Source of the DNA: a virus
Direction: 5' to 3' (one strand)
DNA length: 64,000 bases
Virus record (IMG/VR): IMGVR_UViG_3300027733_000032
The translations under genes were made by a program, and so were the position numbers. The notes under the pieces are model-generated. The model had not been told where the DNA came from, searched no databases, and saw only the letters and a program-made list of their open reading frames with translations. Of the stretch, positions 356 through 30,807 are shown one piece after another. Position 1 is the first letter of the stretch; each line of letters opens with the position of its first letter.

Positions 356-742
356 ACCTTAGTATCGGTAACAGTATTACGCTAGTTGTCAGATAGTTTA
401 TCCACAGGCTGAGAAGTAGACCCTACATTTACACGAAGGCACAAACATATCAAAATGATATAGATGTGACGCTTATAAGGTATAAGGGGTAAGAGTCCCG
501 ATAAATCTACCCTCAACAAATGACGGTGGTGGAAAGCAACTTGCTGATAGGAGATTCGCCCTCCCCTTCGTGCTCGCAATGGAAAAGCGCATACATCTAG
601 AAGCGAAACGACTAGATGCTGAAAGGGAGGGAGGATGGAGCCATTTGAAAGGGCAAACCGTGGCATCTCCCACCATCCTTACGAAGAAGGCGAAACATTT
701 CTTCCTCAATGGAAAGAACGGGGCTCACCAGCATAGAGACAA

Positions 743-958
743 TCACACAGAGAGAGGGCGACTCGCAAGAGAACCAAGGAACTCATTGCCATCCATCTCC
801 ATCAACGCCCAGTAAGCATCTTTGTAAGAAGGGAACACTGATTCAAAGACAACTTCACCCGTGGCTTTATTCTCCAGCGTCCCCAGAACCTCAGAGCCCC
901 GCACAGGAGCGATACGAATCAGATAGACAAGTCCATTGAGGAGCGGTTGATGTTTCAT
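743..958 (-). CDS. hypothetical protein
   Basis: ORF track; same strand as neighbours. Confidence 0.55.
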   Translation of the reverse strand: MKHQPLLNGLVYLIRIAPVRGSEVLGTLENKATGEVVFESVFPSYKDAYWALMEMDGNEFLGSLASRPLSV

Positions 959-1040
959 GTCCGCACCCTACCCACAAAGCCGTTGAGAAGCAAGTACCGA
1001 ATCTCCGGGGCTGACTCGCTCCCCTATCCAGCCCGAACCG

Positions 1041-1247
1041 TCACACTGCCCCTTCGTACTCACGGGAGTGGAGTGTCTTGCCCGCATAGCGGAGGTCGTA
1101 GGCGAACGAGATGAGCCACGAACCGATGTCATCAAAGGGGTACTCACGAGTGAACTCAAAGGCTCCACAGGCTTTACCGTCGGTCACGACAGCCGTGACA
1201 GAGATGATGTTGGTTTCTAGATTGACTGAGTAGGTGAGGTTGTTCAT
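1041..1247 (-). CDS. hypothetical protein
   Basis: Leaderless ATG after class A promoter. Confidence 0.75.
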   Translation of the reverse strand: MNNLTYSVNLETNIISVTAVVTDGKACGAFEFTREYPFDDIGSWLISFAYDLRYAGKTLHSREYEGAV

Positions 1248-1352
1248 ACTTAGGTATCGGAACAGCCGTTACCTTAGTTGGGCGAATGTTTATCCACAGG
1301 TTGTGAATAAAGTATGAGACAACTACCGTAATACTCCTACCGATATATAGAC

Positions 1353-1547
1353 ATGAGCCACTCCACCTACACCCCCTCCCCCCTGTGCGATGCCTGTAGT
1401 CTCCACGAGCCAACCATGGACTGGTACGACCATGACGAGTTCTTTTGGAACCTGTGCGACGAGTGCTTCACCCGTGACGCTCTCATGGGGGGCGAATGCA
1501 CCTCAGCCTGCGACGGGGACTACGCCTGTGCCCACAACTCCCACTAG
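1353..1547 (+). CDS. Cys/His-rich putative Zn-binding protein
   Basis: Leaderless ATG after divergent class A promoter; CDAC, CDEC and further Cys/His. Confidence 0.75.
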   Translation: MSHSTYTPSPLCDACSLHEPTMDWYDHDEFFWNLCDECFTRDALMGGECTSACDGDYACAHNSH

Positions 1548-1770
1548 TGGGCGACCACTCTGAGTGAGAAAACCACCGAGAGTGAGAGTCCCGCATCCCA
1601 CTAACACGCTTAGATAAATCTATCTGAGTGATATTGGGGGTCGTAGGGGGCTAAAAGAGCGACAAAACTCCGAAATATTTGAAAATGCCGAGAATTCGCA
1701 AGTATTTCGTCCCCTATCAGGTCTTTTGCTGCGAACGCAGAGCGTGATTCTTCACCACTCTCCGTGAGGT

Positions 1771-2031
1771 CTAAAGGTGTATAGCACCCATTTCCTCAGG
1801 TGTGCTTTCCGACGGGGCTCGGCTTACCTTGATTTCCCATAGGGATAGCCAGCCATTCCATCCCTTCCCATTAACCCCTTTCAAGAGGATTTGGTCAGCA
1901 CGGTTCTTGTTCGGCACATAGACGAAGCGAGGTCCATGTTCTTTCACTCGGTTGCGGGTTCTCTTAGATGCGGTAGCCCCGTTTATTGAGACGAGGACTT
2001 CGGTTGGTTCGGTGATGTCGCTCAGGCTCAC
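1771..2031 (-). CDS. hypothetical protein
   Basis: Overlap-coupled ORF in minus-strand operon. Confidence 0.6.
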   Translation of the reverse strand: MSLSDITEPTEVLVSINGATASKRTRNRVKEHGPRFVYVPNKNRADQILLKGVNGKGWNGWLSLWEIKVSRAPSESTPEEMGAIHL

Positions 2032-2267
2032 TAGTTCACTTCTCCTACTCTGATACTTTCGTTATCCCTTGTCATACCCTTCATCAGCATCATGTACTTG
2101 CTTGACCACGATAACGGGACTACCCGTGAGTGTTGCTTGTCGTCATAGCCCGTCCATGTAATACGGAACTTGATTTGCTCTTCGTCTTGTATGTCGTTCT
2201 CCATAGTGATGTCTTTCTGTCTCTTGTAGGTATTAGAGAGTTTGCCAACACTGGAGTTGATATCCAT
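2031..2267 (-). CDS. hypothetical protein
   Basis: ORF track; operon context; start may be downstream. Confidence 0.6.
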   Translation of the reverse strand: MDINSSVGKLSNTYKRQKDITMENDIQDEEQIKFRITWTGYDDKQHSRVVPLSWSSKYMMLMKGMTRDNESIRVGEVN

Positions 2268-2306
2268 TGAGGGAAATACGCCCGCTTTTATCGTCTGTGT
2301 TCCCTT

Positions 2307-2606
2307 TTAGTGGACGAGGAAGCCTTCGTTCAGAACAGTAATCTGCTCCTGACCAGCAGAAACGCTGATAACGAGGTGTTCCATACGCTCGTCGGCAAAG
2401 TAGTCCTGCCATTGGGGGTCGTAGGTTTCGCGCCCGATATAGACACGGTACTCATCTCCACCACCAAGAGCGTTCAGAGCGGTGATAGCAGAGTCGTGAA
2501 TGTCCCGAAATGAGCCCCGATAGACGGTTTTACCGACCTGCTCGTTGTCCCATTGGTCGGCAGAAACCTTGACCAACTTCAGAATGTAGTGGTGATACCG
2601 TTCCAT
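2307..2606 (-). CDS. hypothetical protein
   Basis: Start overlaps stop of upstream gene. Confidence 0.7.
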   Translation of the reverse strand: MERYHHYILKLVKVSADQWDNEQVGKTVYRGSFRDIHDSAITALNALGGGDEYRVYIGRETYDPQWQDYFADERMEHLVISVSAGQEQITVLNEGFLVH

Positions 2607-2953
2607 CAGACGCTCACCGTTGTTCGGTAGTGAGTGAGAACTCGGGTTGCTATATCGCTAGAGGTCGCAGTTTCCCACTTAGTGACCTGCTCGTAGATGG
2701 CACTAATCGTGCTGTCGTTCAGTCGTTCCGTGAGAAACAAGTTCCAGCCAGCACCAGCACCGTGACAGTCAAGGACTGTGACAGAGTGAAAATGACCCTT
2801 GTAGGTGTCCATAGCGACGAACCAGCCCTCATCGTTACCGTCTTGGTAGGCACGCTCAATGTCTTTGCGGTCTATGTCAGACATAATGTCGTCAAGCGTA
2901 TTCCACGCAGAGATACTTCCTGTCAGTGGGCGGTATGTGATGTTGATTTCCAT
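2606..2953 (-). CDS. hypothetical protein, paralog of 9409-9798
   Basis: Start moved to leaderless ATG at 2953; shares FHS.T.LD...GAGWNLFL....D..I..IYE.V. Confidence 0.8.
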   Translation of the reverse strand: MEINITYRPLTGSISAWNTLDDIMSDIDRKDIERAYQDGNDEGWFVAMDTYKGHFHSVTVLDCHGAGAGWNLFLTERLNDSTISAIYEQVTKWETATSSDIATRVLTHYRTTVSV

Positions 2954-3063
2954 ACTTAGGTATCGGTTGGTCTGTTTCGTTAGTTGGGTCACTTTTTATT
3001 CGGGCAGATTATCGCCCTATAGGGGGACTTCGCAACCGGGGCTCCCCGTGCTACATTGGGCAT

Positions 3064-3261
3064 ATGGACTTAAACGACCGTTTCGCTGAATTGGATGCCA
3101 AGTTGGCTGTCCTTGAGGCTGAGGTGGAGTTTCTGTGCCGTGATGTCGCCCGACTTTGGCTGGATACGACGCTGACGCAGCCCCGTCCCGAGGGTTCGCA
3201 GGGTTTATTTAGATTTGTAGAGAAGCCTCGTTGGAAAGCGTGGGACTCTTCGGGGGAATGA
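3064..3261 (+). CDS. hypothetical coiled-coil protein
   Basis: ORF track; heptad-like N-terminus. Confidence 0.5.
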   Translation: MDLNDRFAELDAKLAVLEAEVEFLCRDVARLWLDTTLTQPRPEGSQGLFRFVEKPRWKAWDSSGE

Positions 3262-3276
3262 AAATGGGGACTCTTG

Positions 3277-3349
3277 CGTCTCAGGCAGGGGTCGAACCTA
3301 CAACCTACAGATTAGAAGTCTGTTGCGCTATCCATTGCGCCACTGAGAC
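3277..3349 (-). tRNA. tRNA-Arg (anticodon UCU)
   Basis: Minus strand: acceptor stem GTCTCAG/CTGAGAC, D arm TGGCGCAATGGATAGCGC, anticodon arm ACAGAC-TTCTAA-TCTGT, T loop GGTTCGACCC; 73 nt; no encoded CCA. Confidence 0.93.
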
Positions 3350-3421
3350 AGTTTGACTCTCAGGGAATAGTAGCCCCGTTTCTACGGTCACGCAACGGCG
3401 GTGATAGCAGAGGTATTCCCC

Positions 3422-3598
3422 TTACTTTGGCTTGTCGCCTTGCTTGACTAAGGGGTTGTTCATTGCCTCACGAAACGCTCTGTCGTGGCTTACGCCGTTG
3501 AGGTGTCGCTCTAGGGTGTAAGCCTCACTGAACGGCATACTCCAGCCGTACTTGGCTTTCGTGCGAAGTGTCAGGTGTTTTATGCTTATCTCGCTCAT
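3422..3598 (-). CDS. 58-aa hypothetical protein, paralog of 13486-13665
   Basis: Below ORF-track cutoff; leaderless ATG after class A promoter; GWS..F...Y....H..G.SHDRA...AM..P.V. Confidence 0.75.
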   Translation of the reverse strand: MSEISIKHLTLRTKAKYGWSMPFSEAYTLERHLNGVSHDRAFREAMNNPLVKQGDKPK

Positions 3599-3650
3599 AC
3601 TCAGATATCGGTTTGGGAGTTACGCTAGTTGGGTAACACTTTATCCACAG

Positions 3651-3935
3651 TCAGGATAGTGATTGGTCAATGGCAAGTATCAAGAGGCGTGCCTTTTCCC
3701 ACTCCGACCACTTGATAGCAGCCCCGAGTATCTGAATGAGCACTTTCGCATCATTACTGGTGGGATAGATGTCATCACCATTATCGTGTTCTTTCCCAAG
3801 CCACTCTGCCACAGGGACAAAGGAGAAATCGGGGCTACTGGTGCGCAACACGGCGACTTCGTAACGCCCGTCAATAGCGGTCATAGAGAAAGTATCTCCG
3901 CTGGGTAGGGTGTAATGGAGATTGTCGTGCTTCAT
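3651..3935 (-). CDS. hypothetical protein
   Basis: Start moved to ATG (MKHDNL) preceded by GAAAGGA. Confidence 0.7.
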   Translation of the reverse strand: MKHDNLHYTLPSGDTFSMTAIDGRYEVAVLRTSSPDFSFVPVAEWLGKEHDNGDDIYPTSNDAKVLIQILGAAIKWSEWEKARLLILAIDQSLS

Positions 3936-4037
3936 GAGGGTTGTCCTTTCGGTAAATCTAGGGGAATGATAGCCCCGTTTCTGTGTTCGTGTAATGGTTT
4001 GGGGGGAAGGGTTGCCCCTCACCCCCTTATCAACTAC

Positions 4038-4205
4038 TCAGAGCCACTCAAAGAGGTCTCCGTCAGCGATTTCGCTGTAGTCAAGGTCATTCGCATCAGC
4101 GATTGCCTGCCACACGGCATCCTCTGTCAAAGGAGCGTCAGGGTCAAGAAAATCTTGCCACTGTTTCGTAGGTTCTGTCATTTGGTCACCCCCATTCCCT
4201 GTCAT
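4038..4205 (-). CDS. 55-aa acidic hypothetical protein
   Basis: Leaderless ATG after class A promoter (MTGNGGDQMTEP...); an internal SD-led start is also possible. Confidence 0.7.
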   Translation of the reverse strand: MTGNGGDQMTEPTKQWQDFLDPDAPLTEDAVWQAIADANDLDYSEIADGDLFEWL

Positions 4206-4274
4206 ACCTAGGTATCGGTATCAGAGTTCCGTTAGTTGTCTATGGATTTATCCACAGGGCGGAAATAGCATTAT

Positions 4275-4303
4275 GGGGAGAGAGCGGTCGATGCTCCCTC
4301 CCC
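4275..4303 (-). terminator. GC-rich hairpin downstream of candidate ncRNA
   Basis: GGGGAGGGAGC-7 nt loop-GCTCTCTCCCC on the minus strand. Confidence 0.6.
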
Positions 4304-4324
4304 ACCCTGCCACGATGGACAAGT

Positions 4325-4440
4325 ATCAAAGTAGCCGTGCCATGCCCTCTCAGCACTCTGTCCCTCAGCCAGCATTGAGGTCGGCGCGATGATATCGCTC
4401 GCTCACTGGCTCGGTCGGGTCACATGGGGGCTACCCTGAT
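4325..4440 (-). ncRNA. candidate structured ncRNA, ~116 nt, rod-like
   Basis: Class A promoter with no ATG; 5' ATCAGGGTAGCC pairs with 3' GGCTACTTTGAT; inner helices CCATG/CATGG, AGCCAGT/GCTGGCT and GCGAT/ATCGC. Confidence 0.65.
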
Positions 4441-4839
4441 ATCTAAGTATCGGTTTCAGTATTGCGTTAGTTGGCTAGAAGTTTATCCACAGATTTATCC
4501 ACAGGCTCATATCAGCAGTTTCGCAGGAGTGTTTACTCGGTACGGATAGCCCCGGGTTTACAACCCGATTATGTGTTGCGCAACCAACGACGGTGGCGGA
4601 AAGGAAAATGCCCACAGGCACGGAAATAAATAGCCGTTACGCTGGTCTTTTCTAACAACAAAATCAACGACAAAAGACGGGACTCCAGAGGCACGGGAAA
4701 CAGGGGTACTGGGTGGGTTGCCTAGGGGTGATAGCACTCCGTTTTTGAGTACCTTCACAGCCCCGACATAGTAATCAGCCCCACACCGTTTGGCGTGAGG
4801 CTGACCACTGACAGGGAATTGCTTGGTTGAGATTAGTTA

Positions 4840-5094
4840 CTAGGGCAGGGGGAGCGTCGCTCCATCTACTCCCCAGTACGAGTCCTCCCAACAGCGAACG
4901 AACTGGGGGTCAATGCCCAACAGTACGCCGTAACGCTGGGCAATGGCGGTTGCCTGCTCCTTGTTGAAGCAGGGCATGGTCATAATGCCTGAGTCGCATT
5001 CATCACCCGTAGGTGACCGAAACCAAAAGTGGAGTTCGGTGTCAAGGATACGGATGGCAGTGATATCGCCCTTATGGATTGTCGTGGGTGTCAT
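4840..5094 (-). CDS. hypothetical protein
   Basis: Coupled to 5094-5309. Confidence 0.7.
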   Translation of the reverse strand: MTPTTIHKGDITAIRILDTELHFWFRSPTGDECDSGIMTMPCFNKEQATAIAQRYGVLLGIDPQFVRCWEDSYWGVDGATLPLP

Positions 5095-5309
5095 TACTGT
5101 CCTTCCTTGTTGATGATGCGGAGAATGTCTTGGCTCATGTTGAGACCGCCAACGAGAGCAGTCTGAATGGCGTTCTTCAATGCCCGTGGCGTTGCCAACG
5201 GCAAGTAGTTGTCAATTTCGTCCCAAGCCTTGAGACCAGCACGGATTGCTTCGCAGGTCTCTTGGGCGTACTGGGCGTACTTTTCTTCGTGGGTTGTAGT
5301 TGTTTCCAT
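5094..5309 (-). CDS. hypothetical protein
   Basis: Leaderless ATG after class A promoter. Confidence 0.75.
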   Translation of the reverse strand: METTTTHEEKYAQYAQETCEAIRAGLKAWDEIDNYLPLATPRALKNAIQTALVGGLNMSQDILRIINKEGQ

Positions 5310-5415
5310 ACTTGGGTATCGGTATGTCTATCCCCTTAGTTGGGTCAGAGTTTATCCACAGGGCTGTGGATAAAGTGCCGCACAACTACCGCAACACTGA
5401 GACCGATACCTTATT

Positions 5416-5532
5416 ATGATTGACCTTATAAAAGAAATTGCATACATCGTCGGCACACTAACAGCGTGGGCATTGTGTATCTCGCCATTGGCGATTACGC
5501 TACTCACCAACCTACCCGATGACGACCAATGA
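5416..5532 (+). CDS. 38-aa single-TM peptide
   Basis: Leaderless ATG after divergent class A promoter; MIDLIKEIAYIVGTLTAWALCISPLAITLLTNLPDDDQ. Confidence 0.7.
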   Translation: MIDLIKEIAYIVGTLTAWALCISPLAITLLTNLPDDDQ

Positions 5533-5543
5533 AGGGAACGGAC

Positions 5544-5723
5544 ATGAAGTACCGAGTTACATACACACGCCACGATGACCGACTCTTTGTCGGCAGTCAG
5601 GGAGTTTCTTTCTTTCGCACGGAACACGGGGCTGCCCGTTTCCTCGGACAGTTGGAAGAGTCTTACAACATTGACCAAGACTCCATCGTCGTCCACATCT
5701 TTGAGGATGGCGAACAGGCGTAA
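5544..5723 (+). CDS. hypothetical protein
   Basis: AAGGGA SD before ATG 5544; track starts at 5529. Confidence 0.65.
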   Translation: MKYRVTYTRHDDRLFVGSQGVSFFRTEHGAARFLGQLEESYNIDQDSIVVHIFEDGEQA

Positions 5724-5807
5724 CAAGGATAAGCGGAAGCCCCGGCTATTCTTGAGATGTGAGTGTGGTTAGCAGGTCGGAAGCCAACGCCTCCACACCA
5801 CAAAACG

Positions 5808-5845
5808 AAAGCCCCCCACCAAGTCAATCAGCGGTGGGGGGCTTT
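5808..5845. terminator. bidirectional intrinsic terminator
   Basis: AAAGCCCCCCACC-12 nt-GGTGGGGGGCTTT between convergent genes. Confidence 0.8.
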
Positions 5846-5955
5846 TGTGCTTGCTCGGACTTAGAAACGGGGCTCCCTCGGATTTAGAAACGGAGAGTGT
5901 AGATATGCGAAAGTTCCCCACCGTGATGAACGGCAGGGAACTAGGGGGAGGTGGG

Positions 5956-6078
5956 TCAGAGCGACCGTAGTACTCGCTCAACTCTGCCATCTCGGCACTC
6001 GCAGTCGGTTTCTACGACTTCGCAGGCTTGGCAGACAGGCTCGTCATTATCTTGGGCTGGGGTTGATGTGTTGTTCAT
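5956..6078 (-). CDS. 40-aa Cys-rich peptide
   Basis: Leaderless ATG after class A promoter; CQAC...CEC. Confidence 0.65.
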   Translation of the reverse strand: MNNTSTPAQDNDEPVCQACEVVETDCECRDGRVERVLRSL

Positions 6079-6133
6079 ACTTATGTATCGGTATGAGAGT
6101 TACGTTAGTTGGGTCATTATTTATTCGCTTGGG

Positions 6134-6343
6134 CTAGATGGATGAGGCTCCGAACCGTGCTCCACCAAGAGCGGAGTCGCAGGCATCACATTGACTCCAA
6201 GAGAAGTCAGTTGTATCTACTGAGTCCACCACTAGGGGTCCCGTGCGCCCTATCCCCGACTTGACACGGAGTTCAGTCTCCGAGTCCATACCCGAGAAGT
6301 CGTTGTTGGCGTGCGCCATAGCGCAGTCTACGCAAATGTTCAT
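6134..6343 (-). CDS. small Zn-finger-like protein
   Basis: C-x2-C at both ends (CVDC, CDAC); SD-led ATG at 6343. Confidence 0.7.
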   Translation of the reverse strand: MNICVDCAMAHANNDFSGMDSETELRVKSGIGRTGPLVVDSVDTTDFSWSQCDACDSALGGARFGASSI

Positions 6344-6441
6344 TGTTTCATCTCCATACCTGTGTATCGGTTTCAGTATTCTATTAGTTGGGCGAGAGTT
6401 TATCCACACCCAACGAAGATGTGCTCGAAACTCGGGGCTTC

Positions 6442-6663
6442 TCAGTCTAAGAGTGGTTTGAGTATGTTGCGCAAGTCAAGGAGAGAGTCGGTCATTTCCG
6501 ATGACGAACAGATGTTCGTGTTGCCGATGTCCTTCAGTACGCCATCAATAATTGCGAGTGACTTGCGGATGGCGGTGATTTCTAAGTCCCGCTCTCCGAC
6601 TGCCATCTCAACAATAGTTGCGGTGTCGTCAATGATGTTGTGTGAGTTTGTCATTTTGCTCAT
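6442..6663 (-). CDS. hypothetical protein
   Basis: ATGA overlap with upstream gene. Confidence 0.7.
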   Translation of the reverse strand: MSKMTNSHNIIDDTATIVEMAVGERDLEITAIRKSLAIIDGVLKDIGNTNICSSSEMTDSLLDLRNILKPLLD

Positions 6664-7025
6664 TCCTCGTCCTCGTCATCCTCATCGTCTTGACTGAGAA
6701 ACTCCTCATCGGTCATCCAGTCGCCCTGCCCGATGAGACTTGTGTAGCCAGCGTTCGGGTTCTCGTGGTCTGTGGTGACTGCGTTGATGAACTTTAGCCC
6801 GCAAGACTCGTCCCACCAGACTTTTAGGGTGGCGAACATTTCCTCGGGAGTCCCCGTGAAAGTGCGGTCGGTACAACTTCTACCGTTGTAGTTCTGACGG
6901 AACCAGTCTGCTTGTTCCTCATCCATTGCCACATAGATTTTGTGGCAACCGTCAAAGGCTACGAGGAGTGCGTCCTCAACAGCAGTTTCTACTCGGTCAA
7001 ATAATTCGTCAAGTGTTTTGGTCAT
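6660..7025 (-). CDS. hypothetical protein, paralog of 23743-24078
   Basis: Leaderless ATG; DALLVA[FW]DGCHKIYVA motif shared. Confidence 0.85.
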   Translation of the reverse strand: MTKTLDELFDRVETAVEDALLVAFDGCHKIYVAMDEEQADWFRQNYNGRSCTDRTFTGTPEEMFATLKVWWDESCGLKFINAVTTDHENPNAGYTSLIGQGDWMTDEEFLSQDDEDDEDEE

Positions 7026-7091
7026 ACTCAGGTATCGGTTCTGTCGTTGCGTTGGTTGTGTCTAAGTTTATCCACAGGTTTATCCACAGTG

Positions 7092-7427: not shown

Positions 7428-7474
7428 TATAGGTGAACCTAGAGCGCAGTTTGTTAGCCCCGAGTTCCACTCTC

Positions 7475-20718: not shown

Positions 20719-20732
20719 ATTCCTGTTTTGTT

Positions 20733-23496: not shown

Positions 23497-23557
23497 AGGT
23501 TCAGTAAACCTTCTAGTAGTAGTAATAACAACCTCAGTTGAGATTTATCGGAAAGAT

Positions 23558-23746: not shown

Positions 23747-24078
23747 TCATCATCCTGTTCGTCGTCGTAATCCCAAGAGTCACCCTGACTAATGAGACTG
23801 ATGAAACCAGCGTTCGGGTCGGCGTGATTAGTGGCGACAGCATTGACAAACCTCAGACCGCAAGAGTTGGTGTACCAACAGTCAAGTGCGGTAAGCATTT
23901 CGTCGCTTGTCCCCCGTACGGAGTATTCGTAGTTTTCCTCAAACCACTGTGCCTGCTCGTCGTCTAGAGCCACATAGATTTTGTGGCAACCGTCCCAAGC
24001 GACAAGGAGAGCATCGCACATAGCGTCTGCGACTTTATCGGCAACCAGTGGGTGTAAGTCTCGGAGTTTCATCAGCAA
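23743..24078 (-). CDS. hypothetical protein, paralog of 6660-7025
   Basis: DALLVAWDGCHKIYVA and C.L+F+NAV.T.H..PNAG motifs shared. Confidence 0.85.
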   Translation of the reverse strand: MLMKLRDLHPLVADKVADAMCDALLVAWDGCHKIYVALDDEQAQWFEENYEYSVRGTSDEMLTALDCWYTNSCGLRFVNAVATNHADPNAGFISLISQGDSWDYDDEQDDE

Positions 24079-24590
24079 ATCTCAAATCCACCGCAGTCAA
24101 GCAGGAACTCAGCAAACTCTTGGACATTTTCCGTTGAGAATGGGTAGTTTGTTGCGAAGTGTTCTACCTTGCCGTGTCCACGACAGGCATTACACCACCC
24201 GTGAGTGCGTCCGAGAATGATTGCGTCCGCTTCCTCTAGTTCTTTATCGGGCATACCGTTATCAACGCCGACAGTATCCGAACGGATACCCGTACCTTGA
24301 CAGTAGTCGCAGTCCGATGTTGGTAGCGAGGCTAGGTGTTCACGGTATTCGGTTTCGTACTTGGCGGTTACACCCGTAGCGAGGTCGTTGAGTAGTCGCT
24401 GACCGAGAGCGAGTGCGTCATCTGCGTCAAGACCATCACCGTCGTTGGAGTATCCGCTATCAACTTTACGAGCGATGTCGCCGTGTAGTTCCTCACAGTA
24501 GTTCCATAGTGGTCGCCACCACCAAACATTGTTGCGGAAGTAAGAACCTTTTTCGCTCGTTGTGTTTTTGCCGTATACATCCATACCCAT
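24072..24590 (-). CDS. MG[LM]D-type phage protein with Zn-finger insert
   Basis: MGMDVYG...FRNNVWWWRPLW; CDYCQGTG and CNACRGHG. Confidence 0.85.
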   Translation of the reverse strand: MGMDVYGKNTTSEKGSYFRNNVWWWRPLWNYCEELHGDIARKVDSGYSNDGDGLDADDALALGQRLLNDLATGVTAKYETEYREHLASLPTSDCDYCQGTGIRSDTVGVDNGMPDKELEEADAIILGRTHGWCNACRGHGKVEHFATNYPFSTENVQEFAEFLLDCGGFEIC

Positions 24591-24898
24591 TAGTTGTCAC
24601 CTTCCTCAAGGCAGGCGACTTGGCTTTCGTCCATCTCAATAACCCTCACCCAAGAAAGGATGATGCGGAGAAAAACGGAGTAGTCGTTTGGCGAGTATGT
24701 ATGAGTCTGAGTGCGGAACTCCTCAATTTCGTGTTGGGGGACTCCCTCTCGTCGGAGAAGGTGAGTGACCTCTGCGATGATTTCGGAGTCGGTCATTCCA
24801 CAAGTGCTAAGGCTGATGTCATATTTGGGCTTGATGTCTAGGTGTGTCATACTCCCCTTTTCGCTCGTTTGGTTCTTGCCGTATATATCCATTCCCAT
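24590..24898 (-). CDS. hypothetical protein with N-terminus copied from 24072-24590
   Basis: AAAGGA SD; MGMDIYGKNQTSEKGS vs MGMDVYGKNTTSEKGS. Confidence 0.75.
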   Translation of the reverse strand: MGMDIYGKNQTSEKGSMTHLDIKPKYDISLSTCGMTDSEIIAEVTHLLRREGVPQHEIEEFRTQTHTYSPNDYSVFLRIILSWVRVIEMDESQVACLEEGDN

Positions 24899-25196
24899 TG
24901 GAGTTTCCTTTCGTCGTTGTATTTACAGTGAACAGCGTAGGTTTACACAACACAACCTGTTCGTGGGATTTATCTAAGTATCGGTTAGGCAGTTACCGTA
25001 GTTGGGCGTAACTTTATCCACAGGCTGTGGACAACTGAATAAAAATGCGGGGCTCGGTCTGAGTCTTTGGATAAATCATTTAGCGAGGTTGTTGTTACTA
25101 CTACTAGGCGGTTCACTGTATCTAACGCCCGACGGTGGCGGATACCAAAAATAAAAACTGACCCAACTAACGAAATAGCAGAACCGATACCCCACT

Positions 25197-25580
25197 ATGA
25201 ACACACTTACTATGCCCGAAGCAACAGCCATTGCCATTATGGAATGGGCTAAGAACAAACTTGCCACCGTCGGCTACTTGGAGTTCTCCGACGATTGGTG
25301 GGAGTCCTATGACAACGATTGGGATATCAACATTTGGCGTTCCGATATGAGCGAGGAAATCCGTGTCAATGCCTACCCGATGACATTCACTAATGGTGAA
25401 TGGAATACCGACTTCTCCAACTGGGTGAGTTTGGGGACTCTCCGTGAGCCTATCTCTTGGCAGGACGGACATTCGTGCGACCAATGCGGTGACCCGATGG
25501 GTGGCAAGTATGACGGCGACCAACCAACTTCCTACGGTGAGGACGGCGTTGCTCATCTCCGTTGTACGCCCATTGAATAA
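25197..25580 (+). CDS. acidic hypothetical protein
   Basis: Leaderless ATG after class A promoter. Confidence 0.8.
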   Translation: MNTLTMPEATAIAIMEWAKNKLATVGYLEFSDDWWESYDNDWDINIWRSDMSEEIRVNAYPMTFTNGEWNTDFSNWVSLGTLREPISWQDGHSCDQCGDPMGGKYDGDQPTSYGEDGVAHLRCTPIE

Positions 25581-25629
25581 ATCTAAATCACAGGTTGTTA
25601 TTACTACTATTAGGAAGTTCAATAGAACT

Positions 25630-25974
25630 ATGACCACTACACTCTTACAACGAACCAAAGACGCTATCGCTGACGGGAAAATCATTGGCGACGGGCATAC
25701 CATCTTCAATCCCGACTTCTACGCCCCTCACTTCAGTGAGGACGAACTGAGTAAAGCGAAACTCATCCAAACTTTCAAGTCAGACAAGTCTGACCACAAG
25801 TCCACCATTTTTGGCAAGGACGGTAAGCCGATGGAGAAACTCAAGGGCGTGTACAACCTCACTTTCTTGTATTGGCTCTGCGGTGCGCTTGGTATCAACT
25901 CTCACAACGACTACAACGGGCGTGGCTCGCAGGCAGACGAACTCGCTCGCCGTATCCGCAAGGAACTGGCATGA
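25630..25974 (+). CDS. hypothetical protein
   Basis: Start moved to leaderless ATG after class B motif. Confidence 0.8.
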   Translation: MTTTLLQRTKDAIADGKIIGDGHTIFNPDFYAPHFSEDELSKAKLIQTFKSDKSDHKSTIFGKDGKPMEKLKGVYNLTFLYWLCGALGINSHNDYNGRGSQADELARRIRKELA

Positions 25975-26225
25975 GAAGCGACAAAGCACCATTCACCATT
26001 ACCCATCACGATGAAGCCTCGTCTTGGTGTGACTCATCACTTCTGAAGGCATTAGCCAAGACATTCAGTACCGTCTTGGTCACAACACTTGATGGCGACA
26101 TCTACGAGGGCGAGGTGCTTGCCGTTGAGAACGGAATACTCGTCCTCTCCAATAGCAATCTTGGCAATGCGTGGGCAGAAATGGAAATCACGCTAACGAG
26201 TATCACCAACATTCATTATTGCTAA
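25971..26225 (+). CDS. small beta-barrel protein, Sm/Hfq-like pattern
   Basis: ATGA-coupled; TVLVTTLDGDIYEGEVLAVENGILVLSN resembles Sm1 motif. Confidence 0.6.
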   Translation: MRSDKAPFTITHHDEASSWCDSSLLKALAKTFSTVLVTTLDGDIYEGEVLAVENGILVLSNSNLGNAWAEMEITLTSITNIHYC

Positions 26226-26279
26226 AGAAATCTCACCCGTGAGGTTGTTATTACTACTAATAAGGAGTTCACTGTAACT

Positions 26280-26465
26280 ATGACCACCTACCACATTGAG
26301 TACATCATTCACTTAGAGATAGAGGCTGAGAGCGAGGACGAGGCACTAAAACTCGGCTCGCAGGAACTTCACGCCCTTGACGGTGACGGACTCGCTAACT
26401 GTTGCGAGTTCTTAGATATTGAGATAGCACTAACCGACGACTACTACTTAGGAGAAACCGAATGA
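26280..26465 (+). CDS. small acidic protein (EA.SEDEA motif)
   Basis: Leaderless after class B; tandem paralog of next gene. Confidence 0.75.
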   Translation: MTTYHIEYIIHLEIEAESEDEALKLGSQELHALDGDGLANCCEFLDIEIALTDDYYLGETE

Positions 26466-26659
26466 AGTATTACCGTGTAGGCATTTTTGCGTCCGTGAAT
26501 GTGGAAGCAGAGAACGAGGACGAAGCAATACGCCAAGCCCGTGACATTGTTATTGAGGGCGCAATCAAGACGCACGATTACGAGTTTGAGGCTCAGGACA
26601 GAGAACTTGACCCCGACTTGGACTTCTTGGAAATGATGGCTCAGGAGAAGGCGAAATGA
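26462..26659 (+). CDS. small acidic protein (EA.NEDEA motif)
   Basis: ATGA-coupled; DpnD/PcfM-like pattern. Confidence 0.75.
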   Translation: MKYYRVGIFASVNVEAENEDEAIRQARDIVIEGAIKTHDYEFEAQDRELDPDLDFLEMMAQEKAK

Positions 26660-27084
26660 CGAAACTCGTTGTTCATATTGGTACAGGGACTATTATTGAC
26701 GCTGACGAATGCGTTATCGTTGATGTGGAGAAACTGGACGACCACGACACGACACTCGTGAACGATGGTGATGACTCTGACCTTGTTGAGATTGCCGAAC
26801 GACTCGGTAAGCCACTCAACCTGACGGACTTGACCTATCGCAATACGGTGGCGTTCTCTCCATCATCTCTCCGTAGCGAAGCAGAGGAACAGTTGAGTAA
26901 CGGTTACGCCACTGACGATGACGCTATTGCGTATCTGACTTGGACTGCCGAGGTAGCCACTGATGACGAACTGAGCGGTGTTGCTGACTACATTCTCAAT
27001 GACGACACAATGTGGAACGAATACAACACGACGGTAATGGACGGTATGCGCCAAGGTTACAGATGGTCTAAGGAGAGCAAGTAA
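26656..27084 (+). CDS. acidic hypothetical protein
   Basis: ATGA-coupled. Confidence 0.75.
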   Translation: MTKLVVHIGTGTIIDADECVIVDVEKLDDHDTTLVNDGDDSDLVEIAERLGKPLNLTDLTYRNTVAFSPSSLRSEAEEQLSNGYATDDDAIAYLTWTAEVATDDELSGVADYILNDDTMWNEYNTTVMDGMRQGYRWSKESK

Positions 27085-27365
27085 TGGGACTCATCGCTTT
27101 TCATACACCCGAAGATGGATTTACACTCAACGGCGTTGAGGTAGAGATTATTTGGGACGACACTCCCGAAGCAACAGAGGGTGTTCGTATCATTGTTGAT
27201 GAGAACGCCGTACGGGTGACGGATATTTTGTCAGACCCCGACCACTCCGAACACGATATGTGGTCTGCGTGGGACGACGACATCTTCTACTACTGCGAGT
27301 CCGAACAAGAATGGAAAGAACTTCTCGTCACAGGACATCACGACGGATGGAGAGTTCTCCAATAA
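27084..27365 (+). CDS. acidic hypothetical protein
   Basis: TAATG-coupled. Confidence 0.75.
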   Translation: MGLIAFHTPEDGFTLNGVEVEIIWDDTPEATEGVRIIVDENAVRVTDILSDPDHSEHDMWSAWDDDIFYYCESEQEWKELLVTGHHDGWRVLQ

Positions 27366-27414
27366 ATCTGTCCGACAGGTTGTTGTTACTACTAATAGAG
27401 AGTTCAATGAACTT

Positions 27415-27621
27415 ATGACCATCACACTTGACCAACACACTTGCCCTCGTTGTTTCGGGGGTATCCCTAATGACTTACAGCGAGGTCAGTACATCGGAGC
27501 ATTATCACGCACCGATAACAAGACCTACATCTGTTCAGACTGCGGAACGGCAGAGGGACTAGAGGACTATTTTGACCTTGGCTGTTCACCTCAATCCGAA
27601 TGGCGGGTGAACCAATCGTGA
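27415..27621 (+). CDS. small Zn-finger protein
   Basis: Leaderless after class B; CPRC...ALSRTDNKTYICSDCG. Confidence 0.8.
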   Translation: MTITLDQHTCPRCFGGIPNDLQRGQYIGALSRTDNKTYICSDCGTAEGLEDYFDLGCSPQSEWRVNQS

Positions 27622-27956
27622 CCACCATCATTGACCCTTGTATCCATTGCGGAGAACCCACTGCGTTTGGCTCTGTCCGTGAGGACGGAACGCTCGTCGG
27701 CAAGTTCGTGAACCGTATTCCTGCTGACACTATGGACGAGGAAACGGGCGAATACAAAGACGGGTATGCGTGTGCCGAGTGCGCTGGGTATGGGTGCGAC
27801 GAGTGCGATAAGCCGATTTACCTTGACTGCGAAACCCGTGTGGATTATCAGGACGAGAGTGACAAGTACCACTACGGCAACTTTCATACCGAGTGTTACG
27901 ACGAAGCGAAGCACGGCAAAGCCGAATACGGCGAGAACATCAAGGAGACTCTGTAA
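27618..27956 (+). CDS. multi-Zn-finger protein
   Basis: GTGA-coupled start; CIHC, CAEC, CDEC, H..C. Confidence 0.75.
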   Translation: MTTIIDPCIHCGEPTAFGSVREDGTLVGKFVNRIPADTMDEETGEYKDGYACAECAGYGCDECDKPIYLDCETRVDYQDESDKYHYGNFHTECYDEAKHGKAEYGENIKETL

Positions 27957-28270
27957 TGCGTGAAATAGACCTATCCGTACGGAACGCCGACAACTCTTGG
28001 TATTGGCAACAAATCCGTGAATACAGCAACAAGCAAGTCCATCGGTTACGAGCGAACATTCGTCGCAATGCTTACGATGTTCAGTCGTATGCCAACATTG
28101 AGAAGTGGTCGGACGAGCGAGGCTGGGCAATCATCTCCTCTCACCCCATCACGGACTACCCGTGCGTCAAGGTTTCGTACATGACGAAAGAACTCACCGA
28201 CAACGACCATGAGTGGTTCATTCAGACCGCCGAGGAACTGTTCACTATTGGGGTGACATTCGCACGATGA
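27956..28270 (+). CDS. hypothetical protein
   Basis: TAATG-coupled start. Confidence 0.7.
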   Translation: MREIDLSVRNADNSWYWQQIREYSNKQVHRLRANIRRNAYDVQSYANIEKWSDERGWAIISSHPITDYPCVKVSYMTKELTDNDHEWFIQTAEELFTIGVTFAR

Positions 28271-28542
28271 GAACTATCACCGTTACACAAACATACGAAC
28301 TCATCGTATCCATTGAGACTCAAGTCCCCGACGACTACAAGTACGAGGATATGGAAAACTCATTCATTGACTTCCCCATTCGGGTTGATGTGAACCCCGT
28401 ATGGGAAGATACCGAGAATGTCAAGGTCGTTGGAGTATGCGTGGACGCTCTTGTATCTCTAACGGGTGAGGACGCTTTCGCTCTTTATGAAATGAAGGAC
28501 GACGAATACACTCGCCTAGTTGAGGAGAGTGACGATGAGTGA
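28267..28542 (+). CDS. acidic hypothetical protein
   Basis: ATGA-coupled start. Confidence 0.7.
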   Translation: MRTITVTQTYELIVSIETQVPDDYKYEDMENSFIDFPIRVDVNPVWEDTENVKVVGVCVDALVSLTGEDAFALYEMKDDEYTRLVEESDDE

Positions 28543-28768
28543 ATACCACGATTATAGGGGGGTCATCCGTATGGACTTTGATTGTGCTAAAGACTCTCGT
28601 AAAGAGGTAATCGTACAGTTACCTACAGACCCCGACGCAAAATACGAGCAACCCGTGTGTTGTGTTGTGTTTACTGAAGAAGGTATTGTTTTGGACTTCT
28701 TTGAAGATGGTGAACTTGTTCGTTCGCTTGGTCGCACTTATGAAGAGTGGTCTGACTTAGCACTATGA
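28535..28768 (+). CDS. hypothetical protein
   Basis: GAGGAG SD before ATG 28535. Confidence 0.7.
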   Translation: MSEYHDYRGVIRMDFDCAKDSRKEVIVQLPTDPDAKYEQPVCCVVFTEEGIVLDFFEDGELVRSLGRTYEEWSDLAL

Positions 28769-28843
28769 GTGTCGTTAGTCACTCAGGTTGTGATTACGCC
28801 TATCTGTTCTTATTATCAACTATCAAGTAAACGAAAGGGAAAT

Positions 28844-29236
28844 ATGAATACAACAAACATTGTTCGCAAGCCAAACGGCACTGTTGATTTTGACGCATAC
28901 AAGGGACTAGAGGGAAGTATCGGACTAACGGGCATGACCTTCACTATCAAGGTGATTGACGCTCGCCAGTCCTTTGGACGACTAGACCTCTGCGTTGAGC
29001 CGCTTAACGGCGAAGGCTCTCGTTGGATGGAAAGCCGCAAGGTGGAACTCAAGAGCGAGCCAGTGCCTACAGAAGTCATACCAACACAAGCAATGACAGT
29101 CCGAGAGCAGATTGCTCAACGAGCGATTGACGCTTCTCGGGAAAATGGGTCGGTTAATGCCGACCTCATTCAGCGACTGCTGAACCAAATCAACAACGGC
29201 AACTTTGCCACAGAAACAAAGGAAACAATTAAATGA
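28844..29236 (+). CDS. hypothetical protein
   Basis: AAAGGGA SD before ATG 28844. Confidence 0.7.
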   Translation: MNTTNIVRKPNGTVDFDAYKGLEGSIGLTGMTFTIKVIDARQSFGRLDLCVEPLNGEGSRWMESRKVELKSEPVPTEVIPTQAMTVREQIAQRAIDASRENGSVNADLIQRLLNQINNGNFATETKETIK

Positions 29237-29574
29237 AGCGCATCGTATTTGAGAACCCCACCGTCGCCAAGCGTGGACGCAGTGGCGGGGCTGTACAAGA
29301 GTTCATCACCAAACTGAGCGAGACCCCCGACAAGTGGGCTGTCTATACCCGTAGTGCCAATCACATCTCCTACTACTACACAGTGGCGAGCAAGATGGGT
29401 AACCTCAAAATCGCCGTTCGTGCGAATAGCGATGGCAAGACTCATACTGTTTACATGATGTACTTGGGCGTGGAAGCAACCAAGACTCGTGTTGCGGAGA
29501 AGGCAAACAAGAAGGCGAACAAGAAGGTAGCCGTCAAGAAGGCGACTGCCAAGAAGGTCACCGTCAAGAAGTGA
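29233..29574 (+). CDS. basic putative DNA-binding protein with Lys/Ala-rich tail
   Basis: C-terminal KKANKKVAVKKATAKK histone-like repeats; paralog of 20986-21381. Confidence 0.75.
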   Translation: MKRIVFENPTVAKRGRSGGAVQEFITKLSETPDKWAVYTRSANHISYYYTVASKMGNLKIAVRANSDGKTHTVYMMYLGVEATKTRVAEKANKKANKKVAVKKATAKKVTVKK

Positions 29575-29579
29575 TTGTG

Positions 29580-29605
29580 TCAGGGGTGGGGAAACCTGCC
29601 CCTGA
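29580..29605 (+). terminator. hairpin terminator
   Basis: TCAGGGGTGGG-GAAA-CCTGCCCCTGA. Confidence 0.65.
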
Positions 29606-29686
29606 TAAATCCATCTAGTCGGGTTGCTATTACAATAACTAGACTGTTCACTGAAAGTACAAACACTACTACTAAAGGGGACTACT

Positions 29687-30424
29687 ATGCCGAACTGGTG
29701 CTATAACCGAATGAATGTTGCGGGTGACCGTGACTCACTAGTCAAACTCACTGAAGCGATTACCCGTCAGTACGACTCGTCGCTCGCTGAGACAACAATG
29801 GGCGTTGAGCAAGTGGACTACGACCTATCTGTCTTGTTCCCTGTTCCTGAACCGTTGGCTATTCGTGCCGTCATGTTTAATACCGATAGCACTGACCCTG
29901 AATATCAAGAACTTCTCAAAAAGTACGAAGCAAATAAGGCGGAGTACGGTCACACCACTTGGTATGACTGGGCTATTGAGAACTGGGGTACGAAGTGGTC
30001 GCCTCGTATTGAGGAATGGGAAATCATTGACCACTTTGATGGCGGTGCTGGTATCTATGCGTACTACGAAACTGCGTGGTCACCTGCTGACGGACTTATC
30101 CGTGAAGTGAGCAGGCAGTTCCCGACACTTCTGTTCACGGTTTCATCTGACGAGGAAGGTCGCTCGTTCTCTTGTGTTTCGGCGTTCAGTAATGGCGAGA
30201 TGGTCGCTGAGGCTGGTTGCGAACTAGAACCCAACAAAGTTCCCGAACAGTTCCGTGAGGACTATGCGAGGATAGACAAGGACATAGAGACTGGCGTAAG
30301 TGCTGTCGGCTACGACGCTTGGGACGAGATGAGCGAACTTGACAGTGATGTTCTCGGCTGGTTAGAGACTCAAGTGAACGACAAACTGGTTGAGTTGGGA
30401 CTGCTACCGAAGGTGGATGTATGA
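29687..30424 (+). CDS. DUF1281 family protein
   Basis: MPNWC.N; WYDW..ENWGTKW; YETAWSP motifs. Confidence 0.85.
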   Translation: MPNWCYNRMNVAGDRDSLVKLTEAITRQYDSSLAETTMGVEQVDYDLSVLFPVPEPLAIRAVMFNTDSTDPEYQELLKKYEANKAEYGHTTWYDWAIENWGTKWSPRIEEWEIIDHFDGGAGIYAYYETAWSPADGLIREVSRQFPTLLFTVSSDEEGRSFSCVSAFSNGEMVAEAGCELEPNKVPEQFREDYARIDKDIETGVSAVGYDAWDEMSELDSDVLGWLETQVNDKLVELGLLPKVDV

Positions 30425-30448
30425 CCCGTAGGTCACCCGTGAGGCTTC

Positions 30449-30697
30449 TCAGACTTCTTCTGAAGTCTCTTCAGCGTCGGCTTTCTTTGTGGACTTACGC
30501 TTTGGCTTATCGTCGGCTGGGGCTTCCTCGGGAGAAGCGTCCTCAGTAGGCACTTCAGCAGACGGGGCTTCCTCGGCTACTGGGGCTACCTCTAAGTGTC
30601 CACAGTTTTCGTCGTGGGTGTGCTCCTCGGCTACGGCGTTTTCGGCGAGATAGGCTAACTTCTTGACTTCTCGCTGTTCTGGGGTGAGTTTACGCAT
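30449..30697 (-). CDS. low-complexity acidic protein
   Basis: ATG at 30697 (MRKLTPEQR); Glu/Ala/Pro-rich. Confidence 0.65.
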   Translation of the reverse strand: MRKLTPEQREVKKLAYLAENAVAEEHTHDENCGHLEVAPVAEEAPSAEVPTEDASPEEAPADDKPKRKSTKKADAEETSEEV

Positions 30698-30807
30698 GAT
30701 AGAAACCTCGCTAGTTGTAAGTGTGGATACCATGATACCTAACTTATCCACATCCCTGTGGATAAAGTACCACACAACTAGTGAAACAACCAAACCGATA
30801 GGGAGTT

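Follow-up and report, generated by a model that had tools for sequence, protein, structure and literature searches.

The window, a single 64,000-nucleotide stretch of viral DNA, raises the question of why perfect DnaA boxes recur at one fixed position upstream of a large set of predicted early promoters, and which protein reads them. Its source is a large whiB-carrying freshwater actinophage; the whiB gene (45562..45864, minus strand), a marker of an actinobacterial host, has its closest cellular matches in Acidimicrobiia, which is probably the class of the host. The phage would be lytic and infect freshwater Actinomycetota, with the leftmost 34.8 kb as its early arm, probably the first to enter. 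This arm (1..34800) is purged of 4-bp palindromes (ACGT, 1 versus 82; GGCC, 1 versus 63; TGCA, 6 versus 120; TCGA, 5 versus 84), and the purge ends abruptly at about 34.8 kb.

Promoters and DnaA boxes of the early arm

Class A comprises 30 sites of the form CAACYA-N13-WCCGATA between 355 and 30808, 25 on the minus strand and 5 on the plus strand. At 20 of the 30, a perfect DnaA box (TGTGGATAA) ends exactly 9 nt before CAAC (-51..-43); one plus-strand promoter (+1 at 1353) has a one-mismatch box, TGTGAATAA, of the TTWTNCACA type; and in the other nine the box is replaced by an A-tract, only AATAA being kept. The counts of 20, one and nine among 30, reported in the initial annotation, were reproduced. 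The 21 full or one-mismatch boxes share a single register and a single orientation, and both ATAA at -46..-43 and CCGATA at -13..-8 are present in every class A promoter. With +1 assigned from the position of the ATG, ATG stands at the predicted +1 in 24 of the 30, and we infer that these promoters are leaderless.

Minus-strand promoters with one perfect box (first position of the box in brackets) are located at 355..406 (398-406, with ATG at +1), 1247..1298 (1290; divergent partner of the promoter at 1353), 3598..3649 (3641), 4205..4256 (4248), 5309..5360 (5352), 6357..6408 (6400), 8164..8215 (8207), 10965..11016 (11008), 12437..12488 (12480), 16374..16425 (16417) and 21988..22039 (22031; leadered). 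Those at 5309 and 10965 belong to divergent pairs, and the plus strand carries perfect boxes at 5365..5416 (5365) and 11020..11071 (11020). Tandem perfect boxes precede four further minus-strand promoters: 4440..4503 (4483, 4495) and 12727..12790 (12770, 12782), both without ATG at +1, 7025..7088 (7068, 7080) and 15893..15956 (15936, 15948). The perfect box is accompanied by an inverted TTGTCCACA at 20092..20155 (20135; minus) and at 24971..25034 (25014; minus), the divergence point of the early arm, and by an inverted perfect box (30744) at 30744..30808 (30757; plus). The one-mismatch box belongs to 1302..1353 (plus). A-tracts occupy the box slot at 2953..3004, 6078..6129, 7756..7807, 8924..8975, 10192..10243 (leadered), 14060..14111, 15186..15237 and 19128..19179 on the minus strand and at 25146..25197 on the plus strand.

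The left 34.7 kb or so contains 33 perfect boxes, against 0.27 expected from dinucleotide composition in the left arm, and none is found right of 34.6 kb in the 64-kb window, which confirms what had been claimed. They consist of 20 primary boxes, 5 second boxes at an additional distance of 12-13 nt upstream, 2 boxes belonging to class B promoters (9382, 17203) and 6 in a cluster at the arm boundary. Box partners are DnaA-type variants (TTATCAACA, 16; TTGTCCACA, 10; TTATACACA, 5) separated by gaps of 3-4 nt; the variants differ at positions 3, 5, 6 and 7 in the phage versus 1, 2, 3 and 9 in host origins.

Thirteen class B promoters (RGGTTG-N18-DGTTYRMT-N6-start; 9317..31345) have their +1 at 9317, 16714, 17162, 20005, 21893, 23496 and 24920 on the minus strand and at 25124, 25630, 26280, 27415, 29659 and 31345 on the plus strand. 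Most are without a box, often with a ATAAATCT-like A-tract upstream. One (9317..9390, minus) has a box of the TTGTCCACA type, whose end lies at -53, together with an inverted perfect box (9382), and another (17162..17211, minus) has a pair of boxes (17203, perfect; 17188, one mismatch) overlapping the -35 region. The boundary cluster (34282..34561) holds 15 DnaA boxes, 6 perfect and 9 with one mismatch, mostly with a period of 11-12 bp. It is adjoined by four LexA-type GAAC-N4-GTTC sites (34562..34637), which occur also in relatives without the DnaA boxes.

Sigma class of the class A core

The initial annotation missed the sigma type: the class A cores resemble leaderless promoters of the sigma-28/WhiG type rather than housekeeping promoters, and their reader is quite probably a sigma factor of the sigma-28 family, encoded by the host or by the phage. 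The -10 motif (G/A)CCGATA at -14..-8 has the same position as in sites of the host family. The -35 octamer previously used as a reference does mark an element, but this is better read as -35..-31 (SMCAA in the window; CTCAA in a sister lineage), so that the gap between box and -35 becomes 7 nt. Compared with the WhiG -35 consensus T(A/C)AA, which is placed 16 nt from the -10, the window has MCAA and its relative G001 has TGAA, and the match is exact in L452 and L460 (CTCAA) and in L066 (CTAAA). Housekeeping sigA was considered for class A and rejected, as it needs TANNNT at -12..-7 where class A has CGATAN; only two sigA-type leaderless candidates, near 155 and 993, were noted in the early arm. 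ECF40 (SigD/ShbA) was also rejected: AAC and CGAT are present, but GT before AAC is missing in all lineages.

Within the presumed host class, 79 of 101 genomes from one family have a TIGR02479 (WhiG) score above cut-off, and the pattern CTVAA-N17-CCGATA-N7-ATG is found in 32 of 251 host-family genomes versus 0 controls. These sites, which precede GGDEF/EAL, prepilin and response-regulator genes, are in line with the WhiG-type promoter pattern of Actinomycetota (PMC8325347, PMC12871210). In small-genome hosts, matches to the pattern do not stand in front of real genes. All 47 host WhiG-type sites lack a box at the upstream slot. Class A promoters contain extra conserved bases, CTA at -30..-28 and GNAA at -25..-22, both of which host WhiG promoters lack, and those of the window phage never use the host-optimal T at -34; the extra bases and the missing T point to a further, phage-specific reader.

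Candidate readers of the box and their effect

The architecture of box and promoter was sought in related phage contigs, as had been proposed, and was found in G001, L020, L032, L095, L108, L117, L125, L066, L452, L459 and L460. The supposedly invariant spacing holds throughout the window genome at 9 nt but is 8 nt in G001, a relative of about 88% identity in which 23 of 28 promoters are boxed at -42. Between these 88%-identical phages the -35 is respelled in concert across all promoters, and over the lineages as a whole (AAA identities of 100 to 65%) it is spelled SMCAA, STGAA, CTCAA or CTAAA while the box is unchanged. Drift of a site along with its phage reader, the feature of a phage-private operator, is thus seen in the -35 region and not in the box. 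In lower-GC genomes of the presumed host class (n=27), TTATCCACA is the commonest 9-mer beside dnaA, and their DnaA has a canonical domain IV. Neither a DnaA domain IV nor a DnaA-like protein was found in the 64-kb window or in relatives. The proposal that host DnaA reads the boxes is supported on comparative grounds, by the invariant box beside a drifting -35, the host-origin 9-mer, the DnaA-type variants and the 12-bp pairing, and binding of host DnaA to the boxes at -51..-43 is very probable.

A phage protein, either an injected HTH module of head polyproteins or a phage sigma-28 factor with a partner, might read the box together with the longer element at -36..-22, the site being a private operator that arose from a DnaA box. 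The concerted respelling of the -35 despite an invariant WhiG recognition helix in the host speaks for this, as does a triple-HTH module after a GMSS motif (39745..40347, minus) that closes a 1661-aa head-morphogenesis-domain protein and is a candidate injected promoter reader. A WhiG-like sigma factor is encoded on unrelated actinophage contigs, and no sigma-28 gene was found in the phage DNA searched, which covers about one third of the window phage's genome. A private code should drift, however, and the box is identical in all lineages; the 12-bp pairs and origin-like clusters are DnaA-like, and a domain IV homologue is missing. Such a reader appears unlikely for the box and more likely for the -35 region. 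An HA + HTH protein (35060..35440, minus) was considered as a lineage-specific reader and rejected.

Bound DnaA may activate or repress. We infer a positive effect on transcription, and the chances that host DnaA acts as an upstream co-activator interchangeable with an A-tract appear evenly balanced. The upstream slot (-51..-39) would hold either a UP-element-like A-tract or a DnaA box, built on a common ATAA core; DnaA at -51..-43, in many cases paired with a second molecule 12 bp upstream, would sit beside polymerase on a fixed face of the helix and help to recruit or stabilise the enzyme, in the manner of individual host promoters like nrdAB. Orthologous promoters exchange box and A-tract in register: the A-tract promoter at 2953 is boxed in G001, the box at 12480 is an A-tract there, and the orthologue of the one-mismatch box is perfect. 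This exchange would also be expected if the 9-mer were merely a strong UP element or DNA-shape signal, its identity with a DnaA box being incidental, but TGTGG is G-rich, unlike UP elements, and no UP role exists for inverted or tandem partners or for a cluster of 15 boxes remote from promoters, which makes that explanation extremely improbable.

The earlier argument from fixed spacing to polymerase contact stands in part. In distant relatives with sigA-type promoters the proximal box end lies at -52, -53 or -54 in the same orientation, one helical turn further out than -43/-42, and there no common ATAA core underlies the box. The back-to-back boxes of the 5309..5360 divergent pair are preserved in one of these, G021, before a sigA-type promoter. 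The outer register rests on about six independent sites, because the loci of G021-G023, in which just 1-3 of 14-22 promoters are boxed, are partly orthologous. Since ATAA at -46..-43 is present in 30 of 30 class A promoters, the register, which this core partly explains, may be dictated by a promoter element instead of by DnaA, and the nine class A promoters that manage without a box count against co-activation. So do the relatives with few or no boxes, the empty slot at the 47 host WhiG-type sites and the differing variant positions of phage boxes and host origins.

Host DnaA might also bind for a purpose other than transcription, namely tethering or pacing of DNA entry (the T5 injection-stop model), DnaA titration, or replication, with promoters being the only free non-coding places and ATAA providing half a box. 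The palindrome-purged arm ends at a cluster of 15 boxes in which the T5 variants TTATCAACA and TTATCCCCA occur and gaps measure 3 nt (bioRxiv 10.1101/866236), a replication-initiator-like gene without DnaA domain IV (37093..37506, plus) lies 2.5 kb off, and ATAA is kept whether a promoter is boxed or not. This leaves unexplained why sigA-type relatives keep a narrow register at a distance of one turn; class B promoters offer free A-tracts yet mostly lack boxes, and the boundary boxes are absent from L140 and L455. Such a purpose is rather unlikely. Starvation of host oriC, formerly suggested as the purpose, finds no support, since in the close relatives G002, L455 and L140 these early genes have canonical sigA promoters, and boxes are few or missing.

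DnaA activates transcription of nrdAB, gcrA and polA and at the lambda ori (PMC8203912), acts more often as a repressor (bioRxiv 10.1101/2021.05.20.444958), and in its ATP form represses dnaA, nrdAB and iraD (PMC8203912; bioRxiv 10.1101/2021.05.20.444958). In the phage, DnaA-ATP spreading from paired boxes could block the alpha-CTD site and the -35, so that boxed genes would be delayed relative to A-tract genes, or off until phage replication dilutes DnaA. The proximal UP site normally lies where the box is, and the box pair overlapping the -35 at 17162 is preserved in G001. Repression or timing of this kind is very unlikely, given that it needs neither an exact register nor helical phase, that the box lies upstream of the core and leaves it uncovered in 29 of 30 cases, and that repressing two thirds of its earliest genes would be costly for a lytic phage.

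Under co-activation, host-cell state would probably govern when the first phage genes are turned on, and early expression would report DnaA level and nucleotide state jointly with WhiG activity. In Actinomycetota, a low c-di-GMP level frees WhiG, which drives pili. We tentatively raise the possibility, though on balance a doubtful one, that the whole early regulon is a two-input gate on host state, with DnaA beside polymerase and a WhiG-type sigma factor; lineages would have shifted the box exactly one helical turn on changing sigma class while still respelling the -35.

Significance and closest known systems

To our knowledge, T5 DnaA arrays and single DnaA-activated promoters have been described, but no phage-wide DnaA regulon. 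If true, the two-input gate would have no precedent either as a DnaA-activated regulon spanning a phage or as activation of an alternative-sigma holoenzyme by DnaA. The rules of DnaA activation (position, contact surface, ATP or ADP form) are known from few, unlike promoters, and this phage family, with dozens of natural promoters with and without a box and two registers one turn apart, makes them testable. It also offers phage DnaA boxes, which in T5 have lacked an explanation since 1987, a function that can be tested. It further suggests that growth or cell-cycle state of slow-growing lake bacteria is sensed by their lytic phages, and that these can transfer an entire early regulon from one host sigma class to another.

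Among known systems, the DnaA-activated promoters (E. coli nrdAB and polA; Caulobacter gcrA, ftsZ and mipZ; lambda ori) likewise have high-affinity boxes in the promoter region, and stabilisation of or contact with RNA polymerase has been proposed for them (PMC8203912); they are single and use housekeeping sigma, whereas the phage has about 20 in one register, leaderless and with a sigma-28-type core, predicted from sequence. The first-step-transfer region of T5 (Davison, bioRxiv 10.1101/866236) also belongs to a lytic phage, with boxes in pairs 3 bp apart, the shared variants TTATCAACA and TTATCCCCA, and a cluster ending the early arm. The window shares the T5-type feature of a terminal early arm without restriction-type palindromes and with a DnaA-box array at its end. 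The 7-8 boxes of T5 form two inverted-repeat blocks, and promoters go unmentioned in that paper (bioRxiv 10.1101/866236), whereas those of the window phage are mostly dispersed, one per promoter, in a 35-kb arm, with an actinobacterial host and no A1 or A2 homologue recognised among the top 25 families listed for 85 arm proteins.

WhiG/FliA promoters (PMC8325347, PMC12871210) share the -10 CCGATA and its spacing to a T(A/C)AA-type -35, with an exact match in the sister lineage (CTCAA) and L066 (CTAAA) and the leaderless geometry of host-family sites; unlike host sites, those of the phage are phage-borne, one base off at the -35 in the window lineage, and equipped with CTA, GNAA and an upstream DnaA box. 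ECF40 promoters (SigD, ShbA: GTAAC-N16..18-CGAT; PMC12019637) have AAC and CGAT similarly spaced, but the phage lacks GT before AAC in every lineage and has an invariant C at -13 and A instead of G at -8; WhiG is the better fit to the CTCAA of the sister lineage. Many high-affinity boxes outside oriC are likewise a feature of datA and the B. subtilis DnaA-box clusters, but these are compact chromosomal loci; the 34.3-kb cluster alone is similar to them, and it is missing from some relatives. Finally, T4 middle promoters (MotA box) and mycobacteriophage stoperators are repeated, oriented sites at fixed spacing in an early regulon, possibly read in common with host polymerase as in this phage; they are private to a phage protein, whereas the 9-mer described here is the consensus of a host protein and does not drift.

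DnaA boxes and class A promoters of the early arm

A scan for CAACTA-N13-ACCGATA identified 30 class A promoters, all in the left 31 kb of the window (25 on the minus strand and 5 on the plus strand), of which 24 have ATG at the presumed start. With the A of the downstream ATG numbered +1, the box occupies -51 to -43, CAACYA -33 to -28, GNAA -25 to -22 and CCGATA -13 to -8. The perfect DnaA box TGTGGATAA ends 9 nt before CAAC in 20 of the 30 promoters, TGTGAATAA stands at the same position in one, and the remaining nine have AATAA alone, before an A-rich run. Perfect boxes number 33 to the left of 34.6 kb, where 0.27 would be expected, and are absent from the right: 20 are primary boxes, 5 are partners at a distance of 12-13 nt, 2 belong to class B promoters and 6 lie in the cluster at 34.28-34.56 kb. 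On recount, the promoter and box numbers of the initial annotation were correct. An initial stricter pattern had given six single occurrences, all in unrelated contigs. The arrangement of DnaA boxes and promoters is real and conserved.

The class A promoters at 4440 and 12727 have tandem boxes but lack ATG at +1, and possibly drive small RNAs. The candidate RNA of promoter 4440 (4300-4447) folds no better than shuffled sequences (z -1.2), and the sole match of an Rfam search was tRNA; a tRNA-Arg(TCT) gene lies in the early arm at 3276-3349.

The second promoter class, class B, has 13 copies between 9317 and 31345 that resemble AGGTTG-N18-GTTCACT, with a sigA-like -35 and a TTCACT-like -10 without A-11. 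These promoters are identical in the window, its ~88%-identical relative G001 and the related locus L460, and their orthologues in G002 and G008 have canonical TANNNT; class B is best read as sigA promoters, of the kind present in relatives, that have lost A-11. In host genomes its pattern was found 8 times versus once in the control, about three times at real starts.

A promoter core of the sigma-28/WhiG type

The class A core lacks TANNNT, and only two sigA-type leaderless candidates are present in the arm, at its left end. Of 101 genomes from a single family of Acidimicrobiia, the presumed host class, 79 have a FliA/WhiG sigma-28 that scores above the cut-off. The pattern CTVAA-N17-CCGATA-N7-ATG, with the geometry of class A, was found at 37 sites (36 of them CTCAA) in 32 of 251 host genomes and at none in the control, and many of these sites precede real genes (for GGDEF/EAL proteins, prepilin and response regulators). 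The published WhiG consensus is T(A/C)AA-N16-GCCGATAA, and its regulon agrees with the genes at the host sites (PMC8325347, PMC12871210). A sister lineage (L452, L460; MoxR-type AAA protein 84% identical) has box-N7-CTCAACTA-N13-RCCGATA, in which the -35 is the exact host form; the -35 is CTAAA in the related locus L066, STGAA in G001 and SMCAA in the window. The host geometry, the host-form -35 of the sister lineage and the lineage-specific spellings thus indicate that class A is a sigma-28-type promoter whose -35 changed in concert within each lineage. The ECF40 promoter (GTAAC..CGAT; PMC12019637) was judged a poorer fit. A leaderless WhiG regulon, CTCAA-N16-GCCGATA, was noted in the host-class genomes L415-L444 and L357-L371, before GGDEF/EAL, prepilin, CheY-like and LysM/NlpC genes. 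The host tallies for sigma-28, the CTVAA pattern, the window-type -35 and class B each include one genome marked as unpublished, G376, on which no conclusion depends.

The recognition helix of host WhiG is invariant, and the window-type -35 was found in 7 of 251 host genomes versus 2 controls, never at a real gene start and not above chance; nor was the strict class A pattern including GNAA enriched among 151 host-class genomes. It is therefore a real possibility that the phage encodes a paralogue or helper for the -36 to -22 region. No phage sigma-28 was found in the window and related phage DNA (~130 kb of the genome lies beyond the window), and no Sigma70_r2 in 36 related contigs, which are fragments mostly of sigA-type lineages. 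Sigma70_r4_2 matches in the relatives G021 and G023 were rejected as sigma factors, being HTH proteins, and the HA-HTH protein (35060-35440) was rejected as a lineage-specific reader, its recognition helix being the same in sigA as in class A lineages. Genes for WhiG-like sigma factors do occur in unrelated actinophages: in two large actinophage-like contigs a WhiG/FliA-type sigma-28 gene lies close to one that is ribonucleotide-reductase-like (7923-8666 in L468, 145 kb; 8001-8726 in L467, 70 kb), and both contigs lack the class A array and the boxes. The window also encodes a 1661-aa protein (39745-44730) that combines a head-morphogenesis domain with a RelA/SpoT-like EIQFHT motif, has GMSS linkers at residues 947, 1085 and 1462, and ends in a triple HTH; in distant relatives just its N-terminal ~120-190 aa are present, as a separate small gene. 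Atlas searches with the replication-initiator-like gene and the triple-HTH module yielded no name.

The box, its reader and its history in relatives

The 9-mer is unchanged across lineages while the -35 varies in at least four ways, as expected if the reader is a conserved host protein. In lower-GC host-class genomes the commonest box beside dnaA is TTATCCACA, and domain IV of DnaA is canonical. Paired boxes of the phages include the variants TTATCAACA (16), TTGTCCACA (10), TTATACACA (5), TTATCCCCA (4) and TTTTCCACA (4); the gap is 3 nt in 34 of 38 tandem pairs and 3-4 nt in back-to-back pairs. DnaA very probably binds these boxes. That a phage-coded protein reads them instead is unlikely; the DnaA domain IV profile matched nothing in the window or its relatives.

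The same architecture, which the initial annotation had proposed seeking in related phage contigs, is present in G001, L452, L457-L460 and L066, with the -43 register retained in all of these except G001. There, boxes at 23 of 28 promoters all lie at -50 to -42, one base nearer, so the 9-nt spacing described as invariant is constant within a genome but not absolute. At orthologous promoters (12437, 2953) box and A-tract are exchanged in register, in both directions. That the box is a plain UP element is very improbable.

More distant relatives (G021-G023 and 19 loci; AAA identity ~66%) have sigA-type promoters, with only 1-3 boxed promoters per genome, many at orthologous loci. Their boxes have the same orientation and end at -52, -53 or -54, a position that differs from -43/-42 by one helical turn. 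Partner boxes lie at -64 to -66, and one lone box is at -66; the back-to-back boxes of the divergent pair 5309/5416 are preserved in G021 ahead of a sigA core. G002, L455 and L140 have most early genes in common with the window, canonical TTGACA/TANNNT promoters and few or no boxes, and L461 has boxes at the boundary alone. Together with L461, the class A lineages form one weakly supported group in the AAA tree, beside the G002/L455 group. The sparse boxes of relatives and this grouping thus mark the regulon as derived, having expanded from an older and sparser link between DnaA boxes and promoters.

The fixed spacing had been taken to suggest contact with RNA polymerase. Spacing alone is no proof, since ATAA occupies -46 to -43 in 30 of 30 class A promoters and so a promoter element may set the register; the one-turn shift in sigA relatives argues for contact independently of the ATAA core. 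On the likeliest model, to which we give an even chance, DnaA directly upstream of the -35 would substitute for the A-tract/alpha-CTD contact and help to hold the sigma-28 holoenzyme; at nrdAB and in lambda a comparable role has been proposed (PMC8203912). On this model, boxed genes would track the level and nucleotide state of DnaA. That DnaA-ATP instead represses or times these promoters is quite improbable. The lineages without boxes argue against starvation of host oriC, which was suggested earlier, as the purpose; it may be a side effect after genome replication.

Host, early-arm composition and comparison with known systems

The left arm contains ~80 small genes, together with a MoxR-type AAA gene adjoining that of a 496-aa protein, which has no match among cultured phages. 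In the right part lie whiB and auxiliary genes, as well as genes for an HslV-like peptidase and an endolysin. The sequence stems from freshwater metagenome runs, and the window start is a contig end. The closest cellular WhiB proteins are from Acidimicrobiia (42-46%), and four LexA-type GAAC-N4-GTTC sites (34562-34637) directly follow the DnaA-box cluster; the host therefore appears to be actinobacterial, probably of the Acidimicrobiia. Further LexA-type sites are at 6506, 8772, 13166 and 20167, and the boundary group is retained even in the box-less relatives L140 and L455. Phage whiB contigs (L232-L239) binned in unrelated MAGs (Pseudomonadota, Planctomycetota and an archaeon) are likely misbinned phage DNA. 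A small early-arm gene missing from G001 (8967-9317) is a putative potassium-channel (Ion_trans_2) match, and such a gene is present in the early arm of L460 too.

The early arm is depleted of 4-bp palindromes (ACGT 1 versus 82, GGCC 1 versus 63, TGCA 6 versus 120, TCGA 5 versus 84), a depletion that stops abruptly at 34.8 kb; GATC and AGCT occur nowhere in the window (1-64000), the others being depleted solely left of that point. The polar word ACGGTGGYGGAAA, also found in relatives, has 10 copies (523-37216) on the plus strand only, spaced by ~4 kb within the early arm, and could signal nicking or translocation or act in the manner of Chi. AGCCCCG has 52 early-arm copies (132-35843) on both strands, within and between genes, and nearly none rightward; it is enriched in the early arm of almost all relatives examined. 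L461 encodes a DNA methyltransferase (N6_N4_Mtase; 13466-14551) at the boundary, just past its DnaA cluster.

In the literature, which was partially covered, no paper was found on a phage regulon built on DnaA boxes or on WhiG-type phage early promoters, and nothing relevant on DnaA boxes at early promoters of phages or on phage use of sigma-28/WhiG. The palindrome-depleted arm is reminiscent of the part of the T5 genome that enters first; in the injection-stop region of T5, DnaA boxes are paired 3 bp apart and include the variants TTATCAACA and TTATCCCCA, according to a paper that makes no mention of promoters (bioRxiv 10.1101/866236). A boundary DnaA-box array is common to the window and T5, and injection might pause there in the window's phage as well. 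DnaA might be used for entry of the DNA, for titration or for replication, the position at promoters being a by-product, which seems fairly unlikely beside the separate argument for polymerase contact from the one-turn shift. With contact as the preferred reading, the window promoters can be likened to known DnaA-activated promoters, binding and activation being predicted.
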